Source: Alphaproteobacteria bacterium (GTDB lineage: Bacteria > Pseudomonadota > Alphaproteobacteria > CAAHEQ01 > UBA3637). From it: a stretch of 64,000 nucleotides of DNA. A model generated the notes under the pieces. That model made no database searches, was not told where the DNA came from, and saw only the letters and a program-made list of their open reading frames with translations. The position numbers were made by a program, and so were the translations under genes. The stretch lies in NCBI GenBank assembly GCA_045635565.1, contig JAZTVX010000021.1, positions 15,078 through 79,077 of the forward strand. Reading direction: 5' to 3'. How positions within the stretch are numbered: position 1 is the stretch's first letter; each line of letters opens with the position of its first letter. Shown piece by piece: positions 12,990 to 51,225 of the stretch.

Positions 12990-14084
12990 ATGGTTAAAAC
13001 GGTTGCTGTTGGGCTAAGTGGCGGTATTGATTCGACACTTGCAGCCTTGTTGTTGTTAGAGCAGGGGTATCATGTTATCGGTTTAACAATGTCCATTTAC
13101 AATAAAGATATTCCAAATTTAAAACCGGCCGATAATTCGTGTTACGGTCCTGTTGAAAAACAAGATATTCAAGTTGCCCGTAATATCGGTAAACAATATG
13201 GTTTTGATGTTCATGTATTGGACTGTTCGGAAGATTATAAAAAATTGGTTTTATCTTATTTTAAGCAATCTTATTTATCGGGAATAACACCTAATCCCTG
13301 TATTAAGTGTAATGAAATAATGAAATTTGGTATGCTTCATGATAAAGCCCGTGATATGGGAATTGCCTTTGATTATTTTGCAACCGGTCATTATGCTCGT
13401 ATTCATAAGGATAATCATTTTGTTTTACAAAAAGGGATTGATATAAAAAAAGATCAAAGTTATTTCTTATATCGGTTATCACAACAGACACTTTCAGAAA
13501 CGCTTTTTCCCTTGGGTAACTTGACGAAGGAACAAGTGCGGATGATGGCTCGTGAACGGGGACTTTCTGTCGCTGATAAAGCAGATAGTCAAGACTTTTA
13601 CAGTGGTGATTACGTTGATTTGTTGGAAGAGAAACCTCGTACAGGGAATATTATTCATGTTTCCGGTCGTATTTTGGGAACACATCGTGGATTTTGGAAT
13701 TATACAATTGGTCAACGTAAGGGGTTGGGTATATCATTTCCTGTTCCGTTATTTGTGGTTGATATTGATGCCCAAAATAATCATGTGATTGTTGGGGAAG
13801 CTGAAACAACCTATATATCAGAAACGATATTAACGGATATTGTTTGTCATGATAGAGATATTTTGTCAAATTCAAAACCTGTTTTGGCCAAGTATCGGTC
13901 CTCGGGCAAGGAAGTTCCTGCTCAATTATTTTATGATAAGGAAAATGATAAAATACATATTGTTTTCGATGAACCACAACGAGCCGTAACACGAGGACAA
14001 TCTTTGGTTTGTTATTCATGTGAAGATGATATATCCGTTCTATGTGGTGGTATTATTCAAGATGTTATCAAAACGAATATTTAG
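12990..14084 (+). CDS. mnmA: tRNA-specific 2-thiouridylase
   Basis: PP-loop VAVGLSGGIDS, a conserved Cys, and a MnmA-like central and C-terminal domain. 364 aa. Confidence 0.9.
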   Translation: MVKTVAVGLSGGIDSTLAALLLLEQGYHVIGLTMSIYNKDIPNLKPADNSCYGPVEKQDIQVARNIGKQYGFDVHVLDCSEDYKKLVLSYFKQSYLSGITPNPCIKCNEIMKFGMLHDKARDMGIAFDYFATGHYARIHKDNHFVLQKGIDIKKDQSYFLYRLSQQTLSETLFPLGNLTKEQVRMMARERGLSVADKADSQDFYSGDYVDLLEEKPRTGNIIHVSGRILGTHRGFWNYTIGQRKGLGISFPVPLFVVDIDAQNNHVIVGEAETTYISETILTDIVCHDRDILSNSKPVLAKYRSSGKEVPAQLFYDKENDKIHIVFDEPQRAVTRGQSLVCYSCEDDISVLCGGIIQDVIKTNI

Positions 14085-14270
14085 AAAATATCTAAACAAT
14101 TTTTTCTGTAAATCACTAAATATCTATTAAAGACTTTTTTCTGTTGCATGAAGTATGGCAATCGATTCGTTTTTAATGTTTTGTGTATTTATTAAAAGAC
14201 AAAAAAAGGCTTTTGCTAAACGATAAAACCTGCTTAAAAATAACATTTAAAAATCAATATATTCTCTTTA

Positions 14271-14443
14271 AAAAACGTGTCAAAAAAAGGTACGTTATTT
14301 TTCCCATACTATTATGCGAAATACCTCTTGTCAACTAAAAAATACAATCATCTGATTTTTATGTGTTTTTTATCCTCGTATAAGCCCTTTCCGTTTCTCA
14401 AAAAAAAGCGTCAAAAAAACGTACCTTTTTTTGACACGTTTTT
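14271..14443. repeat. A 121-bp segment flanked by perfect 26-bp inverted repeats, upstream of the cysteine-rich prepilin-like gene
   Basis: aaaaacgtgtcaaaaaaaggtacgtt (14271-14296) is the exact reverse complement of aacgtacctttttttgacacgttttt (14418-14443). The enclosed segment carries TTGACA-17-TAGTAT on the minus strand, pointing away from the gene. Confidence 0.6.
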
Positions 14444-14489
14444 TTAAGGGAAGGTTTTGATTTTTTGAGACTATTTTAATGGAGGTTTT

Positions 14490-17400
14490 ATGATTCGCAA
14501 AGTGCCTTTTTTGAAACAATTTTATACACAAAAAACACAAGAATATGGCCGCAGTATGGTTGAAATCTTGGGCGTTTTGGCAGTGATTGGTGTTTTATCC
14601 GCTGGTGGGATTTACGGGTATTCGTTTGCTATGGATAAGTATCGGGCAAACGATATTGTGTATGAAGTCAATCTGCGTGCCAATGATATCTGGCATAAAT
14701 ATCAGGAAATGCCTTTGCCTGAACCGAGTGAAGATGGCACGGATTTTGATGAATTTCCAGATACAACGGGAACGGGTTATCCGATTTATATGACATCACA
14801 CCCCGATGTGGCTTTTAAAACATATGTTGAAGGTGTTTCTTCCCGTGTGTGTAAAAATGTTGTGAACATGAACTTAAATGGTGTTGTAAAAGGCATACAA
14901 TTTGTGCAGGTTGCCCAAGGGGACGGGGGTTTGGTCAAATATACAGGCAGTGCATTGATTTGTGGGGAAGATGAAACAGATAATACAATCGTTTTTACAT
15001 CATTTTTAGATTCGGAAAACAATGAAGCAGGTACAGGACAAAGTGGCGACCCATGCGTTGAAAATGCCGATTGTTCCAGCCTCTGTGGAACAGTAACCTG
15101 TGATGCCGATAAAATGATTTGTCAAAATGAATGTACGGGAACGGATAAACCGTATTGTTATGATAATGGTGAAACAGGCACTTGTGTAGAATGTATGGTT
15201 AATCAAGATTGTGTTTCACACGGAGAAAATTACGTTTGTAATATGTCGGACCATACCTGTCAAGAAATGCGTGTTTGTAATGAAGGTAAAAATTATGATT
15301 CGTCTAAACCCCAAGAATACCGTGCTAAAAACGGGGCGTGTATTCCTTGTGTGGATATTAACGCTATTGAAATCAGTTTAGATAAATTTACCGATACCAC
15401 ATTAAATATAGAAGATGATACAACAGGGGAAGAACAATGTAACGCTTGTAATAATACGCATACGGTCACGATTGATGAAGCCAATAATACGGCTTATTGT
15501 GGTGTTGGTTGTATTCGGGGTGTGACATACGAATCATTAAATGACGGTTGTATTCCATGCCGAAAACCAGATGGCTCGCCGAATGATACGGCATACCAAA
15601 TTCCAGTAACAACAAAAGCCCGTGGTTTATGTGAGGCCTGTAATCTTATCTGGTGGCGATATTCTTATCAACTAGACCGGTGTGATTACATGCCTAAAAC
15701 ATGCCCAGAAGGAACATTTGCTGTATTTGGTTACACAGATAATCCTCGCTGTGAACCCTGTACGAATCCAAATCGTGTTACTGTAATTGCTTGGGATGGG
15801 GGACGACATTTAGGTTCGTCCGTCTGGACGACAGATAAAATTAAGGCATCGTGTACATCTTGTCCGGAAAGAACAAAAGATGGGGTTTGGGCAAAACGTG
15901 AAGTTGTCTATGAAAATGTGAATGGTGCTCCTTGGCATTGTATTCCTATTTGCGAACAACCTGATGAAGAAGCTTCAATTGTAGCCTGTACCGATGCTGA
16001 TGACAGTACAGTTTGTAAACGAAAATATAGAAGTAATGGTGAGTGCTATGCATGTGATGATTCGTCTAATCGAATAATAGATACAGGTGGAACAGATGAA
16101 ATAGATACCTATGAAGAAAAAATCTGTATTGCTTGTGGACGCAAGGTTAAAAATGGGTATTGTATCTTGGAAAACACATGTGGTTTAGGACAGGTAAGAT
16201 TAAAAAACGGCACTTGTCTTTCGTGTGATAAAGAGGGATTTCGTCCTGAAATTGTTGATGAAGATGATTCGGGTTGTTTGAAAAACTGTCGTAAGAAAGG
16301 GAATGATTACAGTACAGATTCAGATGCAACAGAAACACGTTGGATATATGATAATGGGACAACAAAGTATTGTTTAAAAATTTGCCCACAAGAACAATGG
16401 CAAAACAGAAATGGCGTTTGTTTTGATTGTTCTGATGAGATGGGTAAAGAATATTCAACACACTCAACTGATTCACCAGGTAAATATTGTTCGGACCGTT
16501 GCCCTAATAGAGAGTTGACACAAGTATGGGGTGATGTTTGCCGATTAAAAATGTGCCCTCCTGATAAAGATGGTACTATTCGTTATCGGGGAAATTTGGG
16601 TGAATGTATGAGATGTGATTTTACCGGTTCAAGAGGAAATGTCCCCAATTCATGGGTAGCAAAAGCACAATGCGATTTATGCAGTAATCGTATTCATAAT
16701 GGTGGAGCAGATTTATACGGTCTTTGTGTTTTAGTTGATCCTGGTGTTAGTGGTGTTTGTAACAGTCAAAATTGGACCATACCATCAAAATTAGCAAGCG
16801 ATCATCCTGATTTATATGATGAACTTCAAGAATATGTTCGTGGTGAACATGATGGTAAATATTTTAGAGATAATGAAGGATTCTGTCATTCTTGCACGAC
16901 TGACAAGGCTGTTTCAACATCACAGGCACAATGTAATCTTTGCAATATTAAGATTATGCAACGTACATACAGTGGCAAGGTCTGTTCATTAGGTGGTTGT
17001 CAAACAAATGAATTTATGAACAACACGCCTGATTGTATCAAATGTACGCCTGCGACAGAACCAAGTTCTTATATCAATGCCACTTATCAACTCAAAATGG
17101 GGCATACGGCAACATGTGGGCAATGTGGCAATCGTCAAATATTGACAGTAGGTTCCAATAATTTGCAATATTGTGTTCCGAATGTTTGTTTGGTTGGTTC
17201 GGAATGGCAATCGGCAAGCAATGGTAAATGCAAACTGTGTCAAGAAGATAATGCTGTTCATGAAAACGGAACAGAAGCCATTTATCGTCAACAATGCGAA
17301 GCCTGTAACCGTGTCGCATTCAGTCAGGAAGCCAATGGGAAAACATCATGGTATTGTTCCAAGTTAGCAACAGATGGCACATTTATTGATAGCACAGGTA

Positions 17401-17537
17401 ATGTGAAAAGTTGTTCGACATCAGGCGATACGCAAATTGCCAATACCACCAAAGCAAGAAATATTTGTGAAGCAAGTGGATGCGATAGAGTTGCTCAATC
17501 AGATGCAAATGGCAATTGGTGGTGTGTCAAAGATTAA
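14490..17537 (+). CDS. Large secreted protein with a prepilin-like leader and an extremely cysteine-rich CxxC-repeat domain
   Basis: The leader MIRKVPFLKQFYTQKTQEYG|RSMVEILGVLAVIGVL has Gly at -1 and Glu at +5. Dozens of CxxC units follow, for example CIPCxxxDG, CEPCTNPN, CTSCPERT, CLSCDKEG. 1015 aa. RBS GGAGG. Confidence 0.6.
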   Translation: MIRKVPFLKQFYTQKTQEYGRSMVEILGVLAVIGVLSAGGIYGYSFAMDKYRANDIVYEVNLRANDIWHKYQEMPLPEPSEDGTDFDEFPDTTGTGYPIYMTSHPDVAFKTYVEGVSSRVCKNVVNMNLNGVVKGIQFVQVAQGDGGLVKYTGSALICGEDETDNTIVFTSFLDSENNEAGTGQSGDPCVENADCSSLCGTVTCDADKMICQNECTGTDKPYCYDNGETGTCVECMVNQDCVSHGENYVCNMSDHTCQEMRVCNEGKNYDSSKPQEYRAKNGACIPCVDINAIEISLDKFTDTTLNIEDDTTGEEQCNACNNTHTVTIDEANNTAYCGVGCIRGVTYESLNDGCIPCRKPDGSPNDTAYQIPVTTKARGLCEACNLIWWRYSYQLDRCDYMPKTCPEGTFAVFGYTDNPRCEPCTNPNRVTVIAWDGGRHLGSSVWTTDKIKASCTSCPERTKDGVWAKREVVYENVNGAPWHCIPICEQPDEEASIVACTDADDSTVCKRKYRSNGECYACDDSSNRIIDTGGTDEIDTYEEKICIACGRKVKNGYCILENTCGLGQVRLKNGTCLSCDKEGFRPEIVDEDDSGCLKNCRKKGNDYSTDSDATETRWIYDNGTTKYCLKICPQEQWQNRNGVCFDCSDEMGKEYSTHSTDSPGKYCSDRCPNRELTQVWGDVCRLKMCPPDKDGTIRYRGNLGECMRCDFTGSRGNVPNSWVAKAQCDLCSNRIHNGGADLYGLCVLVDPGVSGVCNSQNWTIPSKLASDHPDLYDELQEYVRGEHDGKYFRDNEGFCHSCTTDKAVSTSQAQCNLCNIKIMQRTYSGKVCSLGGCQTNEFMNNTPDCIKCTPATEPSSYINATYQLKMGHTATCGQCGNRQILTVGSNNLQYCVPNVCLVGSEWQSASNGKCKLCQEDNAVHENGTEAIYRQQCEACNRVAFSQEANGKTSWYCSKLATDGTFIDSTGNVKSCSTSGDTQIANTTKARNICEASGCDRVAQSDANGNWWCVKD

Positions 17538-41892: not shown

Positions 41893-43239
41893 TTATTCAC
41901 TTCTTGCACCCCGACCTTCATCTTTGGGTTTAATATTGGTATTTTGATGACTAATTAGAGTAGGGAAGGTAATTGTCAAATTATCAGATGTTGCTTCCGT
42001 GTTGGTCGATATAGAAAAATAAAAAGGTTGTTGATTGGAATATGCTGGCTTTCTTGTTATTTCTTGACATTTTTGTTCTTCTTGAAACACCTCTTTGAAT
42101 GTACGTGTAATCATATTTCTAACGACTAAAGGCAAATCATTATTGATTGATGATTTTGCTTTTTTCCAATCAATTTTTGATTTTTCATCTTCTGATAATG
42201 TTTTCATGATATAATTAAAAGCGTTTTTGTCTCTTTGTAGAAATGTGCACCCTAATATTTCTTCAATTGTGAACATGTTTAAATTTTTAGAAAAAATAGG
42301 ACATTTTTTTTGATAGAGATGAAACATTGCAAACGGGTGCAATTCTTGAATGGATATACTAGCCATTATGGCTCTTTCTTCTTGAGTGGCTTTTTCATAA
42401 ACCATATCAATAATGTTTTTGTTGCATGTTAAAAGTGCCTCTTTTAAAGGATAGCTATACTTATTAGGTTGAAAGGTTGCGCCTGCATCTAACAAAAGTT
42501 TCACCATTTTTTCATCTTGATGAACAATTGCATAACTTAAAGACGAATTCCCTGCCCAAAACATTTCTTTTCCCCACGTACTGTCTTTATTTTTTTCTTG
42601 AGCAATATTTAAAATTCTTTTAACCAGAATTTCATTTTTGTTTCGAACAGATATTGATAAAAACTCAGATGTACCAAGATTGTTCATAATTTCAGCCCCA
42701 TGTTCAAGAAGCAAAAGAGCCGTTTCGGTGTGATTATGATAAACCGCAGCACGCAAAGCGGGGCTTTCTTTATCACGTTCAAAAAAGGAGGGGTTAATTT
42801 TTGCCCCTTTTTTAATCAACATCGCCACAATTTCTGTTTGTCCAAAAGTAGAAGCCACCACTAAAAGGCTTTTATTATCCCCTGTTTTTTTATTCGGGTT
42901 TAAACCGTTTTGCAAAGCGTGTGCCACTTTTTCAACCAATCCCTCTTTAACCCATTCAAAAGATTGAAAATCTTCATATTTTTTTAAATAAGACGTAATT
43001 TTTTTAACGTTTCCAGACAAAATAGCATCTTTAAAGCGATATTCATCTTTTCCTGAAAAAAACTCCAAATCAATTTTTTTGTTTAAATTGATGAAATAAT
43101 TGAAAATTTCAATAGTTTTCTTTTCAGTCGGATATAAAAAAACACTTTCTCGTTCATATTTTTCAATCATTTCTTTCAGTTTTGAATAATCCCCTGTTTT
43201 AAAGGCATTTTCAAAAAGTTCATTAAAGACAGTATTCAT
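41893..43239 (-). CDS. Ankyrin-repeat protein with a shared-type C-terminal tail (…DEGRGARSE)
   Basis: ANK repeats, for example KSLLVVASTFGQTEIVAMLIKKGAKINP and PALRAAVYHNHTETALLLLEHGAEI. 448 aa. Confidence 0.7.
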   Translation of the reverse strand: MNTVFNELFENAFKTGDYSKLKEMIEKYERESVFLYPTEKKTIEIFNYFINLNKKIDLEFFSGKDEYRFKDAILSGNVKKITSYLKKYEDFQSFEWVKEGLVEKVAHALQNGLNPNKKTGDNKSLLVVASTFGQTEIVAMLIKKGAKINPSFFERDKESPALRAAVYHNHTETALLLLEHGAEIMNNLGTSEFLSISVRNKNEILVKRILNIAQEKNKDSTWGKEMFWAGNSSLSYAIVHQDEKMVKLLLDAGATFQPNKYSYPLKEALLTCNKNIIDMVYEKATQEERAIMASISIQELHPFAMFHLYQKKCPIFSKNLNMFTIEEILGCTFLQRDKNAFNYIMKTLSEDEKSKIDWKKAKSSINNDLPLVVRNMITRTFKEVFQEEQKCQEITRKPAYSNQQPFYFSISTNTEATSDNLTITFPTLISHQNTNIKPKDEGRGARSE

Positions 43240-43262
43240 TTTATTTTTCTTCCGTTAAATTA

Positions 43263-44018
43263 CTACTCTGTTCTTGCACCACGGGAAGTGTCTTGTGTTG
43301 GCAATTGCTTTTGGTCTGTTATTTTTTGGACCTGTCTTGGAATATCTACATCATCTCCTTGTATATTTTCATCTGGGTAAGGCGGAATTCTGTCCAAAAG
43401 TGTTTTTTCATAATTTTCAACAGGTTGAACTGTAATATCTTGCACACGAACAATCGGTGTTGGAAATTTTTGTTCTAAATCCTGATCGCTGATTGGCATA
43501 ATGCTTTTTTCTTCAATGGCTTGTCTGATATATGCTCTAACAGTTTGGCTGTGTTTACTCTTTTTGCGTTCAAATTCAAGTATCCCATTTTTCATAGCAT
43601 CCGAATAAGCCAAAGCAACAGGTGTGTATCCCATTTTATTCACTTTTGTTATAGAGGCTCCATTATTCAACAATGCAACAACTAACTCTTCTCCACCTTT
43701 TTGTTGAACAGCCATATGCAAAAGAGTATCCCCATCTATATCTGCTTTTTTAACATCACATGTCTTATTCTGCACTGATTTGATAATATATTTTTCTAAT
43801 TCAGAAGTATATTGAGAATATTTCATAATTCCTATGTATTCCAATGTTTCACAAGCGGTATTGGATTTATTAAGAACGTTGTCTAAGTCTTTATCAAAAT
43901 CTTCTTCAGTATATGGAAGCAATTGTCTGTTAAAAATGGTAGTTGCAATATTCGCAGTTTTTTTTACTAATTGTGAAAGAAAACCTATTTCATCTTTTTT
44001 ACCAGTATTCGTTGTCAT
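43263..44018 (-). CDS. Ankyrin-repeat protein with the conserved C-terminal tail (…PRQVQKITDQKQLPTQDTSRGARTE)
   Basis: ANK repeat DGDTLLHMAVQQKGGEELVVALLNNGASI..GYTPVALAY. The tail is shared at DNA level with the 51781 and 52328 genes. Confidence 0.7.
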   Translation of the reverse strand: MTTNTGKKDEIGFLSQLVKKTANIATTIFNRQLLPYTEEDFDKDLDNVLNKSNTACETLEYIGIMKYSQYTSELEKYIIKSVQNKTCDVKKADIDGDTLLHMAVQQKGGEELVVALLNNGASITKVNKMGYTPVALAYSDAMKNGILEFERKKSKHSQTVRAYIRQAIEEKSIMPISDQDLEQKFPTPIVRVQDITVQPVENYEKTLLDRIPPYPDENIQGDDVDIPRQVQKITDQKQLPTQDTSRGARTE

Positions 44019-44290
44019 GATAATACCCTTTTTTTATATTTATTCGACATTTTTTATCTCATATGGTGGTCGGTTTTATAGCATATTTAAAGATATCTGT
44101 CAAATATTATCTAAAAACATAGAGAAAATATAAGGAAGTAAAATCCAGTCAGGTAAAATAGTTTTTATAATATTTGACAAATGGTTTATGGAACAAGTAT
44201 ATAGGCATTCAATAGAAGACAGATTGATTTTCGTGTTATAAATTTTGCAATTTTAAACCATGCTTTTGCTTGATATCAATAACATTTCGA

Positions 44291-45484
44291 TTACATATCA
44301 GTGCATACAGCGTATCTTGCCTCATTGTTCAAACCTGTCGGGTTTACATAACCGTTTGAAGGATTGATATGATAACTATAACAATCAGAGTAAGTATCTG
44401 CCATCCACGACCAGTCAGAACCATACGCTTTTTTCATTGCGGCTGTTGGTGCTGATATATTTGTCGTGCTGGATGTTGTTATTCCGATAGTTCTATCGGC
44501 ATGACAATATCCCCATCTGTTTTCACATCCTGTGGGACAGAATTTGTAGGCACATTTGTAATCGGCTACTTTAACAAGACGTTTTCCTAGAGCTGTACAA
44601 AAATGATCAGCACTCCACCAATTCATTGGGATAGATGACATAACAAACGGCGGATTGGATGATTCTTTTGGTGGTTTAAGCGTTGTATTTTTACAAGAAC
44701 CTGTCATACCTTGTGTATCTTTTGTGCATTTATTTCCACCAACATCTGTAATATGACAATACAATCCTCTGTTGCAATCGCTATTACTTTTGCACGTTTC
44801 TGTTTGCATTTCGCATGTTTTTGAAGATGTGAATCTTGTATTTAATTCATTACAATAGCATTGAATAATTTCCCCTGTTTGCGAATTATGCATTGTCTCA
44901 GCTAAACCACCCAACCCATCCGGTGATGTATTTTTAGGACAAATAAGTAATGGTAAAACCTCTGTATTAAAAAATAACATTATTGTGTTATTTTTATCTA
45001 AACAAACTGCATTTTCATCAATAGATACACCATTTAAGAGTTGATAAACAACATATTTTAAAACATTAGATGACATTTGTATGTTTTTGCAAAGTGGCTT
45101 ATTCACATTGGTTAATGATATCCAATAACCAGTTTCTTTTACATGGCATTTTCTTTCTTTTTTGCCGGAATTGCCACAACCATAATCAAACAGATAATTT
45201 CCGGTTATCATTGTACCATTATCGTATGGATCAACTAATGATAATATTTTTTGCTTATCGTAAGATGTTACCAATTCGATCATCAGTTGATGTGATACAT
45301 TATTGATTTCATTTAGCACATTATTTGCATGATATTTATTCATTGCGTACGTATAACCCGCAATACCGATAATAGAAAGTACACCGACAATGGCTAAAAT
45401 ACCTAACATTTCAACCATGCTACGACCTCGTTGTGTTGTCAATGTTTGTAAATTTTCTGTTTTTCGATGCAAGAAATGAATCAT
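44291..45484 (-). CDS. Cysteine-rich secreted protein with a prepilin-like leader. Third paralog. The start is taken at the internal Met. The ORF track extends it to 45580.
   Basis: MIHFLHRKTENLQTLTTQRG|RSMVEMLGILAIVGVL parallels the leader of the 14490 gene. The C-terminal half is Cys-rich (CHITDVGGNKCTKD...CKNTTLK...). Confidence 0.55.
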   Translation of the reverse strand: MIHFLHRKTENLQTLTTQRGRSMVEMLGILAIVGVLSIIGIAGYTYAMNKYHANNVLNEINNVSHQLMIELVTSYDKQKILSLVDPYDNGTMITGNYLFDYGCGNSGKKERKCHVKETGYWISLTNVNKPLCKNIQMSSNVLKYVVYQLLNGVSIDENAVCLDKNNTIMLFFNTEVLPLLICPKNTSPDGLGGLAETMHNSQTGEIIQCYCNELNTRFTSSKTCEMQTETCKSNSDCNRGLYCHITDVGGNKCTKDTQGMTGSCKNTTLKPPKESSNPPFVMSSIPMNWWSADHFCTALGKRLVKVADYKCAYKFCPTGCENRWGYCHADRTIGITTSSTTNISAPTAAMKKAYGSDWSWMADTYSDCYSYHINPSNGYVNPTGLNNEARYAVCTDM

Positions 45485-45605
45485 ACTACCCCCAAATAAA
45501 ACAACGTTTCTTGATAAAAACATTCCATAACAAAATATCCTTTTTGGAGGCATGATATTGGATATTTTGTCTATTGTCAATAAAAAAATAACATCTAAAT
45601 GCCCT

Positions 45606-45783: not shown

Positions 45784-48700
45784 TTATTTTTTCTGGTTAA
45801 TAACCTCTAATACATTATATTCATCGATAATATCGTTGTGATGATTGGTTATATTATTTTGATTCATCAATTCTGTTATATAATCATGGTGGTCTTTTGG
45901 ACCTGGATATATCATTTTATCATTAAGAAGTGAATAATATGCATTTTTGATAAGTGCTCCGATTTCGAATTGAATTTTATTTTCAATACTCGTTCCTTGT
46001 TTTTTCCCGTTAATAAACACATTTTTACTATGTCTGACAACATTTTGATCATTTGTTTTGATAATGTTACTGCTATCTAATGTTAAATGGATTGGTCTTC
46101 TGATTAAAGCCAACTGTGCAGTTGCACTATAATCAAGAGTATCCTTGATATTACCAATAACGATTTTCTTATCTTTTGTTTTGATAATTCCTTTGTCTTT
46201 AATATCACCAGTTATACTAACATTTGGTGTTTGAGTCGTCAAAGAAAGTGTTTCTGTAGTGAGGTCTTTTATTTTCACATCAGTATCAGAAGAAATAACA
46301 ACATCTTTGGATAAAATTTTATTGTAATTTGCTCCATTTCCCGTGTTGTTCAAATGAATAAGATCGCTTGCAATAGCGTTTACGTTGTTTTCATTTGATA
46401 GATCAATTTTTAACGCATTCTCTTTCCCAATTGATTGACTGGCTGTTAATGAAACATTTTTAGCAAAAATATTTGTATCATCAGAAGACAAGCCATTCAA
46501 AATGCTCATGTCAGTTGTAATATCAATATTATTGGAAAAGTCATTTGTAAGCCCTATGATTATTCCCAGATGTAAATCTTGAGATGAGTTAACTGTTAGA
46601 TTATCAACAACACCACTTAAAATGCCATTAGCTTTTAATTCATCAAGTGTTACATCTTTGCCAAAGATATCTAAATCTTCATTAACAAAAACATTGTTTA
46701 GTATTGCATTTGTATGAGTTGTAACAGAAATACTACCCGTTTCTGATATTAAATTGTTAGCCATGATGTTGTTTTTTGCATCAATCATAGCATTACCAAC
46801 AGATATTCCCTCGTTGATATTTAAAACATCTCCAATGCCTTTTATAAATGATTGTTCTGCTTGATATTTCAATCCTTCACCCGCTTTATTTGATGGTGTT
46901 GACACAACCAAGAAACGCTCTCTTGAACCAATGTCTTTACCTTCAACTGTAGTTAATGAAATATTTTTAGCGTTAATATTTACTGTTTCTATTTTTTCAA
47001 ATTTTTCAGAAACATTGCTAATATTTCCTGCAGATACAACTTTAACAGTTCCTAACGCACCTTCGCCGTTATTTGTATCAATCTTATTGATTTTTAATCC
47101 ATTTTGAACATCTTCTGTTCTTAGATAAACATTACTTTCACCTTTAGATAAGATGGTTACCCCTTTGGTTGAAGACAAATTTATTGATGAAGTTTGACTC
47201 CCGACATCACCACTTGCCTTAATTGCAATTTGTTCGCCAGCAATAGAGGAAGCATCAGTTGCATTTTGAACACCTTTATTATTTGTTAAGGTTACATTTT
47301 TAGAGGCTCTAATTGTTCCAATTTTCATATCGTTGTCAGAAACATTTTGGATATTAATACTGTTTAATCCCCCTAGCTTACCATTGTTATATCCAGCAGT
47401 TGCATTTATTGCCCCATTTATATTCACTTCAAGATTTTCGATATTCCCGGCTTCAGATGAAAGAGTTAAATCTTTACCTGCAAATAAGTTATAGTTTTTA
47501 TTTTTATCAGAACTTGCTGTGGCTATAATTCCAAAGGTAGAATTTAATGCTACATTTCCTTCATTTGATTGAATATTGTCGATATACATTGTTGCAATAG
47601 AATCTAAATATATATCATTTTTAGCTTCTATGTTGTAAACACCATTCTTTGCAAATTTTAATGCAGAATCTTTTGTTCCAATTCCACCATTTAATGCTTT
47701 TAAATAAATTTCGCTACCTATGATATGATATGGACTATAAGTTTTGGTGTTGCCGGCAATGATTGAGCCTTCTTTACTTTCTAAAGATATTTTTCCATCA
47801 TTTTCTGATACAATTGAAGATACAACTAAATCGCCTTTATTTGTAATAGAAATGTTGTTTTTAGCTCTGGCTTTTAATTCGTTAACATCAATATCAATAT
47901 TTTCATTTTCAGTTGTATCAAGAAGGATGCTATCAGCTCTTAATTCTAAAGTGTCAGCAAAAATATTTATCTCTTTTCCAATACCATTAAAGTTTTTGTT
48001 AGAGGATGCGAGATAGGCATTGCCACTTGCATTAATGTTAATATTGCTTATCTCTGTATATGGATAATTGATATACACGTCTTTACCACTTGCAGTTAAA
48101 GTTCCATTATTTAAAACTTCAACTTGAATGGCTTTGATTGCAGATCCATTTTCTGTTAATGATTCACCAATATTATTTTGAGTATTTAAAGTAATATTAT
48201 TTGCTGAAATGATAGAATTTGTACCATTCGCTAAAATGCTTCCGTTTGATGTGATATTAACATCACCATGAGCAGCAGAAACGTTGTTGTTTAATAATAT
48301 ATTACCGCTTCCATTAGATGTAATATTAATTTCTGGTTTATCAAATCCTTGAAAGTCAATTGAAATAGAATTGTTTTTAACTTCATAAACCGGATCATAA
48401 TTAACCGTTACGGTTTTATATTGTTTGCCAGTAAATAATTCAACAAGCCATGAACGAGGTTCATAAACTTGATAAGAATATGTTCCACCGGCAGATGTTA
48501 TTGTGTAAGCATCCTTACCGGGAGTATATGTTGTTGAATAAACTTTTGCACCGTCAGCCCTTGCAACAACAGATGTTTCATTACCAAAGAATCCGTTTCC
48601 TTGAGTGTTTCCTGTTGCTGAAGTAATAATTTCACCCTTATTAACATAAACTTCATATTTTCCGGCATTAGAAGATAAAAACTCGTTTGTTAAGTTATCA

Positions 48701-50052
48701 TGAGACAGATTATCAAAAGTATCTCCACCATCTTCTGAAGAAAACTTGAAGTCATTGATTGTTAATTTACCTTGAGTGTTGATATCGGCATTTAATGTAT
48801 TTGTAACCAAATTGTATTTTGAATTATTTATAATATTGATATGTCCGTATCCGTTCAAAAGAACAATTTTACCTGTGTTTGAACTGCTGACAATATTTCC
48901 AGTTAATGTAATATCGCCACCTTCAATATTTGTTTTAAACAAGTGAATATCTCCAGTGACATTTCCTGTTTTAGTTGAGTCGGTTGGTTTAAAATAGGCC
49001 TTGATTTGTTTCAATTGAGATAAATCACTTGTATCATCTGTTAAAGTTAAATAATAGTATTCTTCCCCTGTTTGACTTTTTGTCATTTCGGTTTTAACAC
49101 CATTGATAATCTGATAATATGTATCACCTTCTTTGACAATTGATAGGTCTGGAATGTTAATTTCTTTAATTTCACTTCCGCTTTGAATTAATCCGTTAAC
49201 ATCTATTGTTTTTGCTTCAATATTAATATTTCCAGTTGCAACAATGGCACCATTTTCATTTGCACCGGCAATTTCTATTTCATTTGAAGTATATTGTTGG
49301 TTAAATCCTCCGTTTGGTACTTTTATTTCCAAGTTCTTTGCTTTTAAATTTCCTTCAGATAAAATACTACCAGTATTGTTAATGATAGAAATAGAACCAG
49401 ATGTGTTTTCAACATTGCCTCTTAAAACGATATCACCGGCCTGAGAATTGATGTTAACACTTGGATCATTGGCATTCACATGGTTCACAATGGATATTTT
49501 TGTATCAATGGTTTCATTTACTATATTTTGTGTAATAGAGGAGGGGATACTTGTTCCATAAATACCACCTTTTAACTCTCTATCGATAATCAAATCACCA
49601 TAAATGATGTTATTAGCGCTATAGTTTTGAATATCAATTGTGAAATTATTTCCAGGGGCTGTAATTGAACCTGATCCTGTGATATTCCCCGTTAAATTGA
49701 CTTCACCTGATCTGATAATAATATCATCTACAACCATCGAATATATAGAAGTATCAGAGGAGGCATTTTCTTCTTGTCTGTGTTGTAGTTCCTCTATTTT
49801 TGCCTGCAAATCTTTAATGTCATCAGTATATTTTTCTCTGGTTTCTTCTAATATAGCATTTATTTGATTGATATTATTTTCGGCAGAAGACATTGTGCTT
49901 TTATAAGTTTCAATTGCTATATTATTTTCATTTATTTGTATTGTATCTTGAGCTATTTGTTTGGTTAAAGATTCTTGTTTTGTTATTACAGCAAATAAGG
50001 CATCAGAGTAAGCTTGACTGTTTTTGCCTCCAGTATTATATGCATCAATCAT
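45784..50052 (-). CDS. Giant (1422 aa) beta-helical repeat protein. FHA/adhesin-like Asn/Gly/Ile-rich repeats. It has no signal peptide and no TPS domain.
   Basis: N-terminal coiled coil, then repeats such as GNITGSGSITAPGNNFTIDIQ and GDIVLRGNVENTSGSISIINNTGSILSEGNLKAKNLEIK. Confidence 0.6.
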   Translation of the reverse strand: MIDAYNTGGKNSQAYSDALFAVITKQESLTKQIAQDTIQINENNIAIETYKSTMSSAENNINQINAILEETREKYTDDIKDLQAKIEELQHRQEENASSDTSIYSMVVDDIIIRSGEVNLTGNITGSGSITAPGNNFTIDIQNYSANNIIYGDLIIDRELKGGIYGTSIPSSITQNIVNETIDTKISIVNHVNANDPSVNINSQAGDIVLRGNVENTSGSISIINNTGSILSEGNLKAKNLEIKVPNGGFNQQYTSNEIEIAGANENGAIVATGNINIEAKTIDVNGLIQSGSEIKEINIPDLSIVKEGDTYYQIINGVKTEMTKSQTGEEYYYLTLTDDTSDLSQLKQIKAYFKPTDSTKTGNVTGDIHLFKTNIEGGDITLTGNIVSSSNTGKIVLLNGYGHINIINNSKYNLVTNTLNADINTQGKLTINDFKFSSEDGGDTFDNLSHDNLTNEFLSSNAGKYEVYVNKGEIITSATGNTQGNGFFGNETSVVARADGAKVYSTTYTPGKDAYTITSAGGTYSYQVYEPRSWLVELFTGKQYKTVTVNYDPVYEVKNNSISIDFQGFDKPEINITSNGSGNILLNNNVSAAHGDVNITSNGSILANGTNSIISANNITLNTQNNIGESLTENGSAIKAIQVEVLNNGTLTASGKDVYINYPYTEISNININASGNAYLASSNKNFNGIGKEINIFADTLELRADSILLDTTENENIDIDVNELKARAKNNISITNKGDLVVSSIVSENDGKISLESKEGSIIAGNTKTYSPYHIIGSEIYLKALNGGIGTKDSALKFAKNGVYNIEAKNDIYLDSIATMYIDNIQSNEGNVALNSTFGIIATASSDKNKNYNLFAGKDLTLSSEAGNIENLEVNINGAINATAGYNNGKLGGLNSINIQNVSDNDMKIGTIRASKNVTLTNNKGVQNATDASSIAGEQIAIKASGDVGSQTSSINLSSTKGVTILSKGESNVYLRTEDVQNGLKINKIDTNNGEGALGTVKVVSAGNISNVSEKFEKIETVNINAKNISLTTVEGKDIGSRERFLVVSTPSNKAGEGLKYQAEQSFIKGIGDVLNINEGISVGNAMIDAKNNIMANNLISETGSISVTTHTNAILNNVFVNEDLDIFGKDVTLDELKANGILSGVVDNLTVNSSQDLHLGIIIGLTNDFSNNIDITTDMSILNGLSSDDTNIFAKNVSLTASQSIGKENALKIDLSNENNVNAIASDLIHLNNTGNGANYNKILSKDVVISSDTDVKIKDLTTETLSLTTQTPNVSITGDIKDKGIIKTKDKKIVIGNIKDTLDYSATAQLALIRRPIHLTLDSSNIIKTNDQNVVRHSKNVFINGKKQGTSIENKIQFEIGALIKNAYYSLLNDKMIYPGPKDHHDYITELMNQNNITNHHNDIIDEYNVLEVINQKK

Positions 50053-51225
50053 AGTTTTGAGTACGGTGATTTATTTAATCTCAACACGTTAAGAAAAGAT
50101 TTAAATACTTTTAATCGGAATGCGCGTTCTGTTAAAATGAGAGCAGAATTAAAACCGGGTGAAAAGTATGGAACAACAGATGTTAAAATGGTTGCTGAAG
50201 AAAGTTTTCCATATCATTTATCTACTTCATTTGATAACTTTGGCAGGGATACAACTGGAGAGCATAGGGGAGGGTTGGTCGCTTCTTCAGATTCATTGAT
50301 TGGATTTCAAGATAGGTTATCAGTAGCATTCAATATGTCTCGTTCATCTTCTAATCCTTATGTTGATTATAGTATACCAATTAACCATAGTGGAACAAGA
50401 ATGGGGATTTCATATATGTATGGTAAAAGCGAAATCAGTTTAGATAATAATGCTGATTTTGATTTAACAGCAAAATCAAGAACGCTTAGTGGGTATTTAA
50501 CGCACCCGCTTATTGATACTTCAAAAGGGAAATTAAATCTTAATACCTCTGTTAACGCAAAAAATTCACATGCAGATATTTCGGATATTACCTATTCCAA
50601 ATATAAAGGCCGGTCTGTTGCTGTTGGATTTGGTGGTAATTATAACTTTAATAACAGTATGTTATATGCTTCATCATATTTGACTTCCGGGGTTATTGAA
50701 GATCATATAAAAGATAAGAAACATAGTTTTAGCAAAGTGAATGCTGATTTATATTATATACATTATTTGCCTTCCAGTATTGTTGGAACTTTTAAGGCTG
50801 GTGGGCAGTATTCACCTGACAATATGGCCTATCTTGAACAATATCAAATTGGCGGAATTTCAAGTATCAGAGGATATTCAGAAGGTTTGTTGATGGGAGC
50901 AAGTGCTTATTATACCAACCTTGAAATGTTATTCCCAATACCATTTCTACCTAAAACAATCAATGTTCCTTGCAAAAAAGATGAAACATTCCACTTAAAA
51001 GATTCAGTAAAATTTGCTACTTTTGTTGATCATGGGGCTGTCTTTCATCATGATAGACCAACAGAAAAAGAAAACTTTTTGTTAAGTGCAGGTGTTGGCT
51101 TAAGATTTGCTTTAAGCAAATATATTTCTGCCAGATTTTATGTCGGATTCCCATTGATGAACAAAAAAACATATCGAGAATCTGATGCTGCCTTTCATTT
51201 TGATATAATTGCTGTTCCTTTTTAA
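50014..51225 (+). CDS. TpsB (ShlB/FhaC)-family outer-membrane transporter. Apparently 5'-truncated: no signal peptide and no first POTRA domain.
   Basis: POTRA2-like LRKDLNTFNRNARSVKMRAELKPGEKYGTTDVKMVAEESFPYHLSTSFDNFGRDTTGEHRGG. The Omp85/TpsB L6 motif is present as ISSIRGY. C-terminal beta-strand ends in Phe. Confidence 0.55.
   Translation: MTVFASSIICINHSFEYGDLFNLNTLRKDLNTFNRNARSVKMRAELKPGEKYGTTDVKMVAEESFPYHLSTSFDNFGRDTTGEHRGGLVASSDSLIGFQDRLSVAFNMSRSSSNPYVDYSIPINHSGTRMGISYMYGKSEISLDNNADFDLTAKSRTLSGYLTHPLIDTSKGKLNLNTSVNAKNSHADISDITYSKYKGRSVAVGFGGNYNFNNSMLYASSYLTSGVIEDHIKDKKHSFSKVNADLYYIHYLPSSIVGTFKAGGQYSPDNMAYLEQYQIGGISSIRGYSEGLLMGASAYYTNLEMLFPIPFLPKTINVPCKKDETFHLKDSVKFATFVDHGAVFHHDRPTEKENFLLSAGVGLRFALSKYISARFYVGFPLMNKKTYRESDAAFHFDIIAVPF

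Follow-up and report, generated by a model that had tools for sequence, protein, structure and literature searches.

Phase variation by promoter inversion has a familiar example in the fimS switch of Escherichia coli, in which 9-bp repeats surround 314 bp of DNA at a single locus, with tyrosine recombinase genes adjacent to it. Invertons, defined by inverted repeats that flank a promoter next to a gene, are a well-known kind of element (PMC11602134), and the invertible promoters of Bacteroides fragilis have a multi-locus, trans-acting organisation (PMC4747536). Surveys with PhaseFinder and DeepInverton mention the Alphaproteobacteria just in a comparison of GC content. Our literature search found no description of the repeat family reported here, of switches in these Alphaproteobacteria or of the protein family that they would control, and a large switch family in uncultured gut Alphaproteobacteria has apparently gone undescribed.

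The window, by which we mean the whole 64-kb stretch of DNA that was analysed, comes from the chromosome of a Gram-negative bacterium, has a G+C content of about 34% and encodes GcrA. At the sequence level, one locus in it corresponds to the generic definition of an inverton, having inverted repeats and a promoter between them, upstream of a gene for a cysteine-rich, pilin-like protein. We consider that this locus is probably an active invertible promoter which, in the orientation recorded in the window, is OFF.

Inverted repeats and promoters at the window locus

The locus lies between mnmA and the gene that it would control, and comprises the following features.

12990-14084, plus strand: mnmA, the upstream neighbour; the switch promoter of the window points toward its 3' end.
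14202-14269: left flank, an imperfect mirror of the right flank, with a decayed copy of a 5' UTR (RBS GCAGG, start ATC).
14270-14296: left inverted repeat, 27 bp, AAAAAACGTGTCAAAAAAAGGTACGTT, with outer arm GTGTCAAAAAAA and core GGTACG at 14289-14294.
14297-14417: putative invertible segment, 121 bp, promoter-bearing; homologous segments occur in both orientations in sister clusters.
14306-14311, minus strand: -10 hexamer TAGTAT (TATTAT in relatives), 17 nt from the -35.
14329-14334, minus strand: -35 hexamer TTGACA of the switch promoter, facing away from the gene and invariant in five aligned loci.
14408-14445, plus strand: complete arm-core-arm site, gcgtcaaaaaaa / cgtacc / tttttttgacacg, then T7.
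14418-14444: right inverted repeat, 27 bp, with core CGTACC at 14420-14425 and outer arm TTTTTTTGACACG.
14445-14489, plus strand: fixed 5' leader of the gene, with TGATTT at 14458-14463 and the RBS GGAGG at 14481-14485 (not at 14478, where it had been placed before).
14490-17537, plus strand: the controlled gene, encoding 1015 aa with a prepilin-like N-terminus and about 100 Cys, mostly in CxxC pairs.

An earlier note on this DNA had described 14271-14296 (AAAAACGTGTCAAAAAAAGGTACGTT) and 14418-14443 as exact reverse complements enclosing 121 bp. Both the complementarity and the length of the enclosed segment (14297-14417) were confirmed, and the perfect match proved to be one base longer, so that 14270-14296 and 14418-14444 form a perfect inverted repeat of 27 bp. 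When other copies were sought in the 64-kb window with up to three mismatches to the 26-mer, these two sites were the only ones, and 100 dinucleotide-preserving shuffles contained no match. Beyond the perfect repeats, imperfect complementarity of 78% extends over 100 nt per arm, pairing 14202-14301 with 14413-14512.

The two sites are not equally complete. A third partial copy of the repeat, gcgtcaaaaaaa at 14408-14419, abuts the right repeat and makes the right site a near-perfect palindrome consisting of arm, core CGTACC and arm; the inner arm of the left site is degenerate (7/10). The motif TGATTT is found symmetrically 13 nt outside each repeat (14251-14256 and 14458-14463). In reverse complement, the left flank (14202-14269) can be aligned to the 5' UTR, RBS and ATG belonging to the gene at a related locus (L001), but with GCAGG and ATC in place of the last two; such mirroring of the gene leader by this flank (14202-14269 with 14445-14512) could stem from an ancient inverted duplication or from the loss of a divergent partner gene. 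Between 13900 and 14700, nothing scored near a gathering threshold in an Rfam scan.

A consensus scan confirmed the minus-strand promoter TTGACA-17-TAGTAT that the earlier note had seen inside the segment, pointing away from the gene at 14490 (10/12). Between the right repeat and the gene, the sole plus-strand promoter match is TTGAGA-18-TATGAT; its -10 overlaps the ATG and it is not conserved in related loci, so the earlier statement that no convincing forward promoter lies between the right repeat and the start codon stands. A promoter formed from the TTGACA inside the right repeat was considered and rejected, as there is no -10 at 16-18 nt downstream in any of five loci. A second leftward promoter match (11/12) spans 14256-14283, with TTGACA in the left repeat followed after 16 nt by TATATT at 14256-14261. 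Four of five related loci keep this -10, and none of the loci has a minus-strand gene on its left. A divergent gene as the target of the leftward promoter was likewise rejected, because throughout the cluster the gene to the left is encoded on the plus strand.

In the present orientation, RNA of the right site (14408-14445) folds into a hairpin (-12.2 kcal/mol) that lies just before the gene and has a U7 tract behind it. After inversion the perfect inner arm would adjoin the left repeat, where the hairpin would reach -14.6 kcal/mol and be followed by U8, and the right site would become a poor hairpin. Among the relatives, the perfect palindrome is on the right in L039, in which the promoter faces away from the gene, and on the left in L075 and L080, in which it faces the gene. 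The hairpin may block read-through from mnmA in both states while sparing transcripts begun inside its inner arm.

The putatively controlled gene and its relatives in the window

The N-terminus of the 1015-aa protein, ...EYG|RSMVEILGVLAVIGVLS... (G|RSMVE and then a hydrophobic helix), is invariant in 38 homologues, as are the approximately 100 cysteines, most of them in CxxC pairs. Residues 1-185 were modelled with AlphaFold2 (pLDDT 73.6); in the model, an N-terminal helix of 52 residues (19-70) precedes a β-sheet, and the best PDB match of this model was the type IV pilin TcpA, with E = 1.9e-3 and a TM score of about 0.4. A Pfam scan of the protein gave no family, NCBIfam prepilin models reached an E of about 0.1 only, which is below significance, and a PDB profile search with the protein family gave no match. 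Given the N-terminal motif and the TcpA match, together with Pfam and NCBIfam scores that are not significant, the term pilin-like seems to us reasonable but not proven. The wealth of CxxC pairs among about 100 cysteines recalls the variant surface proteins of Giardia.

Homologues of the protein were found exclusively in MAGs of uncultured gut Alphaproteobacteria, with several paralogues per genome. Compared with its paralogues the gene is a mosaic; identity to L002 and L005 is 90.6% over the final 816 nt and 80-83% in the 5' parts, and against L001 it matches at 82-85% with the middle unmatched. This pattern of nucleotide similarity suggests recombination among members of the family. Assemblies in which the flanking DNA is 99.4% identical do not contain the exact gene of the window.

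A second pilin-like gene (...RGRSMVEMLGILAIVGVLS...) lies on the minus strand of the window at about 44291-45484, with its likely ATG at 45484, and has no inverton. Its promoter, TTGACA-17-TATCAT at 45580-45552 (11/12), is fixed and faces the gene, which indicates that this promoter type is used for the family in the organism of the window. A perfect 11-bp palindrome pair (45530-45540 and 45560-45570) brackets the -10 of this gene. Elsewhere, a 21-nt inverted repeat that is 86% complementary, has its arms 46 nt apart and contains TTGACA lies at 44095-44182, between two minus-strand genes. The window also has three ankyrin-repeat ORFs (in the regions 41893-44018, 45784-51225 and 61173-63947), and in the same regions a 1422-aa ORF that has no Pfam family adjoins a gene of the ShlB/FhaC outer-membrane type, the two being possibly a two-partner secretion pair.

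Probable switches upstream of related genes

Scanning species-representative genomes with an alignment of the family brought up over 560 related N-termini; 80 loci were taken for comparison. In the 520 nt that precede the conserved GRSMVE motif of pilin-like genes from MAGs, perfect inverted repeats of 12-32 nt enclosing 100-145 nt turned up at about 20 loci. On a strict count, 19 of 77 upstream regions have such a repeat; the same criterion selected 6 of 400 random windows of those loci and 1 of 308 shuffles. The distance from the end of the right repeat to the start codon was 21-58 nt for 18 of these loci and 129 nt for the remaining one (L031). The repeats themselves differ among clusters and follow a common plan, which is an A-run, a core of the form GG(T/G/A)(A/T)C(G/C) and a T-run, and a second arm often turns each site into a palindrome.

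Near-identical repeats stand at L005, L010 and L033, all from RGIG4106, and more than one switch was found in single MAGs, namely L039, L075 and L080 in BRZ_DV__bin2 and L053 and L083 in E20__bin339. Several switches per genome with one repeat consensus are thus seen in the relatives; of the window's own genome, one switch in 64 kb is visible.

Five loci (the window, L005, L010, L020 and L033) were aligned. All of them retain the repeats, both promoter hexamers and the 17-nt distance between these hexamers, whereas the spacer sequence of the window differs from that of the other four. Across the same five loci, 6 of the 27 arm positions have changed on both arms and none on one arm only, and 97% of the cells are complementary, a level of covariation that no shuffle reached. 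In these alignments the arms are kept identical within loci while the loci diverge, as would be expected if the arms recombine with each other or must match. A scan of metagenome contigs with GTGTCAAAAAAASGTMCSTT gave five unrelated single matches, with no partner repeat and neither a further copy nor a flipped form of the switch of the window type, and a protein search with a spurious 58-aa ORF spanning the whole switch gave no candidate contig in either orientation.

A different promoter arrangement was observed at L004, L007, L012, L015, L028, L062, L066 and L084, where a GGGAC core lies between a -35 TTGCAA and the -10. In classes of the L004 type, the -35 is located at the inner edge of the repeat, on the invertible DNA, and the -10, either TACACT or TACAAT, in the fixed right flank. 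Since the core lies within the promoter spacer, inversion in these sister classes would separate the two hexamers of what is a split promoter. When the sister classes with the GGGAC core face the gene, an A-tract block is also placed upstream of the -35. L025 (3640-3990) has an inverton facing the gene and, about 45 nt beyond it, a solo site with a complete TTGCAA-17-TACAAT promoter, which gives the impression of two switch remnants in tandem. At L004 (4251-4620), the DNA separating gyrB from the inverton contains a unit of about 120 bp repeated several times in tandem. The DNA before the pilin-like gene at L040 (2250-2510) has no switch, is richer in G+C and appears foldable.

Both orientations among homologues

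All upstream regions were compared with each other by BLAST and then subjected to signed clustering, which gave 11 clusters with no sign conflicts. The BLAST comparison contained many long minus-strand matches, and these were limited to the inner segments. Orientation was mixed in four of the 11 clusters, with collinear flanks and with breakpoints at the repeat core. The mixed clusters are as follows.

L007 and L066 against 16 loci.
L025 against L018, L022 and L078.
L039 against L075 and L080, all in one MAG and 96% identical over 164 nt.
L053 against L083, both in one MAG.

Identity of the inner segments was 93/113, 110/127 and 107/127 when one member of the comparison was flipped, and 58/113, 74/127 and 73/127 when it was not. 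The exchange of the base beside the GGGAC core is exactly the one that a crossover within the repeat would produce. The promoter TTGACA-17-TAnnnT faces the gene in L083, L075 and L080 and faces away from it in their flipped partners L053 and L039. In the cluster to which the window itself belongs (the window, L002, L005, L008, L010, L020 and L033), all seven loci have the promoter facing away, that is, OFF.

Assembly breaks at the probable switch

Look-ups of the exact protein products of mnmA and metK of the window gave no match. A cluster of near-identical MnmA proteins (P0117) led to four contigs of the same species from four samples, which are 99.3-99.4% identical to the window over 1.5-6.2 kb. 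These contigs end at window positions 14231, 14231, 14276 and 14301; two stop 39 nt before the left repeat and the furthest stops 5 nt past it. From the other side, the contigs that carry the three closest homologues of the gene begin inside or at the repeat just upstream of it. More generally, of the 33 MAG contigs that end at most 4 kb upstream of pilin-like genes, 14 end within 350 nt of them, against an expectation of 2.9 (P = 2.5e-7). Breaks of this kind are what mixed orientations would cause, although multi-copy repeats or strain variation could cause them too, and we take them as supporting evidence and not as proof. A more distant relative, with an mnmA 84% identical to that of the window, has neither switch nor gene at the corresponding place.

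Candidate recombinases

A search for recombinase genes, which the earlier note had suggested, found no tyrosine or serine recombinase in the 64-kb window. Pfam scans covered 49 of the 53 window ORFs that are 120 aa or longer (the other four overlap longer ORFs) and gave no recombinase, integrase, resolvase or transposase (Phage_integrase and Resolvase included). When XerD and Hin seeds were compared with all ORFs of 84 loci, amounting to about 600 kb, just two orthologous XerC-like genes were retrieved, and the Hin seed gave no match.

These XerC-like genes, at L039 (2386-3444) and L040 (1201-2250), are 58% identical to each other and lie directly upstream of pilin-like genes in two MAGs. Both score 300-310 bits against TIGR02224, below its cut-off of 335. 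At L039 an inverton of the GGATCC class lies between the XerC-like gene and the pilin-like gene, and at L040 no switch is visible. We rejected these genes as proof of the invertase, since they probably encode a housekeeping enzyme and the adjacency may be due to chance. The plan of the sites is compatible with simple tyrosine-recombinase sites and with Hin-type serine-invertase sites alike. The half-site TGTCA-A7-GG appears to resemble hix and the Mpi consensus, and the repeat core appears to resemble the Mpi consensus ARACGTWCGT and the hix half-site of Hin.

Proposed mechanism and alternative explanations

We propose that a site-specific recombinase, encoded elsewhere in the genome and acting in trans, pairs the two 27-bp repeats. 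Each repeat would belong to a site composed of an A-run arm, a 6-bp core and a T-run arm, and strand exchange at the GGTACG/CGTACC core would flip the 121-bp segment. In the recorded orientation, TTGACA-17-TAGTAT would fire leftward, toward the 3' end of mnmA, and the right-site hairpin with its U-run, in the putative role of a terminator, would sit between upstream transcription and the gene. With the promoter directed leftward and this hairpin and U-run before the gene, we propose that the gene is OFF. After inversion, by coordinate arithmetic, the -10 would be at 14403-14408 and the start near 14415, and transcription would run through the right repeat, producing a leader (5' UTR) of about 75 nt and expression of the 1015-aa protein; the hairpin would then be upstream of the promoter, beside the left repeat. 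We infer that flipping continues at the window locus.

The proposal of the earlier note that this is an invertible ON/OFF promoter switch, currently OFF, gains support from the recurrence of the layout, from the presence of both orientations at homologues and from the conserved hexamers, and it is further backed by the covariation of the arms and by the breaks of same-species assemblies at the repeat. A second reading takes the locus to be a former inverton, now frozen, in which inversion has ceased at the window locus and throughout its cluster, leaving the gene permanently silent or expressed in another way. The single orientation shared by all seven loci of the window cluster is the reason for keeping this reading under consideration, and the lack of a recombinase in the window and the degenerate inner arm of the left site would fit it as well. 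A frozen switch is nevertheless unlikely in our view, because arm identity over 27-30 bp is perfect within each locus, with six compensated changes and no one-sided change, because the promoter hexamers are intact, and because same-species assemblies from four samples break at the repeat. A majority of OFF loci is, moreover, also found in a sister cluster that does have flipped members (16 versus 2).

Less probable still is a static region, in which the repeats are operators for a dimeric protein, for example in looping repression, and flank a promoter for a leftward non-coding transcript, with no inversion taking place. Reverse-complemented inner segments between collinear flanks in four clusters, with breakpoints at the core, would be left unexplained by such an arrangement, as would the assembly breaks, and there is no minus-strand gene to the left in any locus of the cluster. 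What speaks for it is the symmetry of the locus, in that each site is palindromic (arm-core-arm) and TGATTT recurs 13 nt outside each repeat, together with the second leftward promoter match (11/12, TTGACA in the left repeat and TATATT at 14256-14261). The pair of protein-binding palindromes that the earlier note had offered as an alternative is disfavoured on account of the flipped inner segments between collinear flanks. The least credible of the explanations, and a very improbable one, is that a MITE-like element happened to insert upstream of the gene. In its favour, the segment is short, is bounded by terminal inverted repeats and has related copies at several loci per genome in either orientation. 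Against it, the flanks (...tattctcttt and taagggaagg...) have no direct repeat in common that would mark a target-site duplication, the 64 kb hold one copy, BLAST of the switch against plasmid and phage records showed no similarity, and the related copies, which were sought only upstream of one gene family, lie 21-58 nt from the start in 18 of 19 cases with homologous flanks. This suggestion, also made earlier, thus fails on both target-site duplication and copy distribution.

Significance and comparison with known systems

On the reading of the window locus as an active inverton, we can envisage, more tentatively and with the odds somewhat against so broad a claim, that the switch is one node of a genome-wide regulon. 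This regulon would consist of dozens of invertons that share an arm-core-arm site and a trans-acting invertase. Under its control, giant surface proteins that are pilin-anchored and CxxC-rich, and that form a very large and mosaic family, would be expressed combinatorially or near-exclusively. If this were true, the regulon would be a bacterial counterpart of the antigenic variation of protozoan variant surface proteins. The switch family would show that uncultured gut Alphaproteobacteria vary a large repertoire of pilin-like, Cys-rich surface proteins by DNA inversion, as Bacteroides varies its capsules. Such variation would be relevant to the evasion of immunity, to resistance against phages and to colonisation of the guts of animals and humans. 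The switch family would also explain the systematic breaks of metagenomic assemblies upstream of pilin-like genes, and the repeat consensus, which is an A-run, a GGNNCS core and a T-run, may be usable for scoring ON and OFF states in existing metagenomes and for finding the invertase.

The earlier note had likened the locus to switches of the fimS type. In both, the invertible segment carries the promoter of a downstream gene of the pilus or adhesin type and the outcome is ON/OFF phase variation, and in this respect the comparison holds, since the putative switch would work in the same way, by promoter inversion before a pilin-like gene. In the strict sense it does not, because there is no adjacent gene resembling fimB or fimE. 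In contrast to fimS, the locus described here has 27-bp repeats around 121 bp, belongs to a multi-locus family and has no recombinase within 64 kb.

Given the lack of an adjacent recombinase, the switch would function like fimS and be organised more like the multi-locus, trans-acting system of B. fragilis. The likeness to the Mpi system of that species extends to the many promoter segments per genome, to the shared repeat consensus and to the position of the segments upstream of paralogous loci for surface structures; it also includes the absence of an adjoining recombinase from most switches and the OFF state of most loci at any one time. The two systems differ in their targets, which are capsule operons in B. 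fragilis and pilin-like proteins here, in uncultured Alphaproteobacteria of another phylum. They differ also in the promoters, which are of the Bacteroides type TAnnTTTG in the one and of the sigma-70 type TTGACA/TAnnnT in the other, and in the length of the segment, which at 100-145 bp is shorter here than in B. fragilis.
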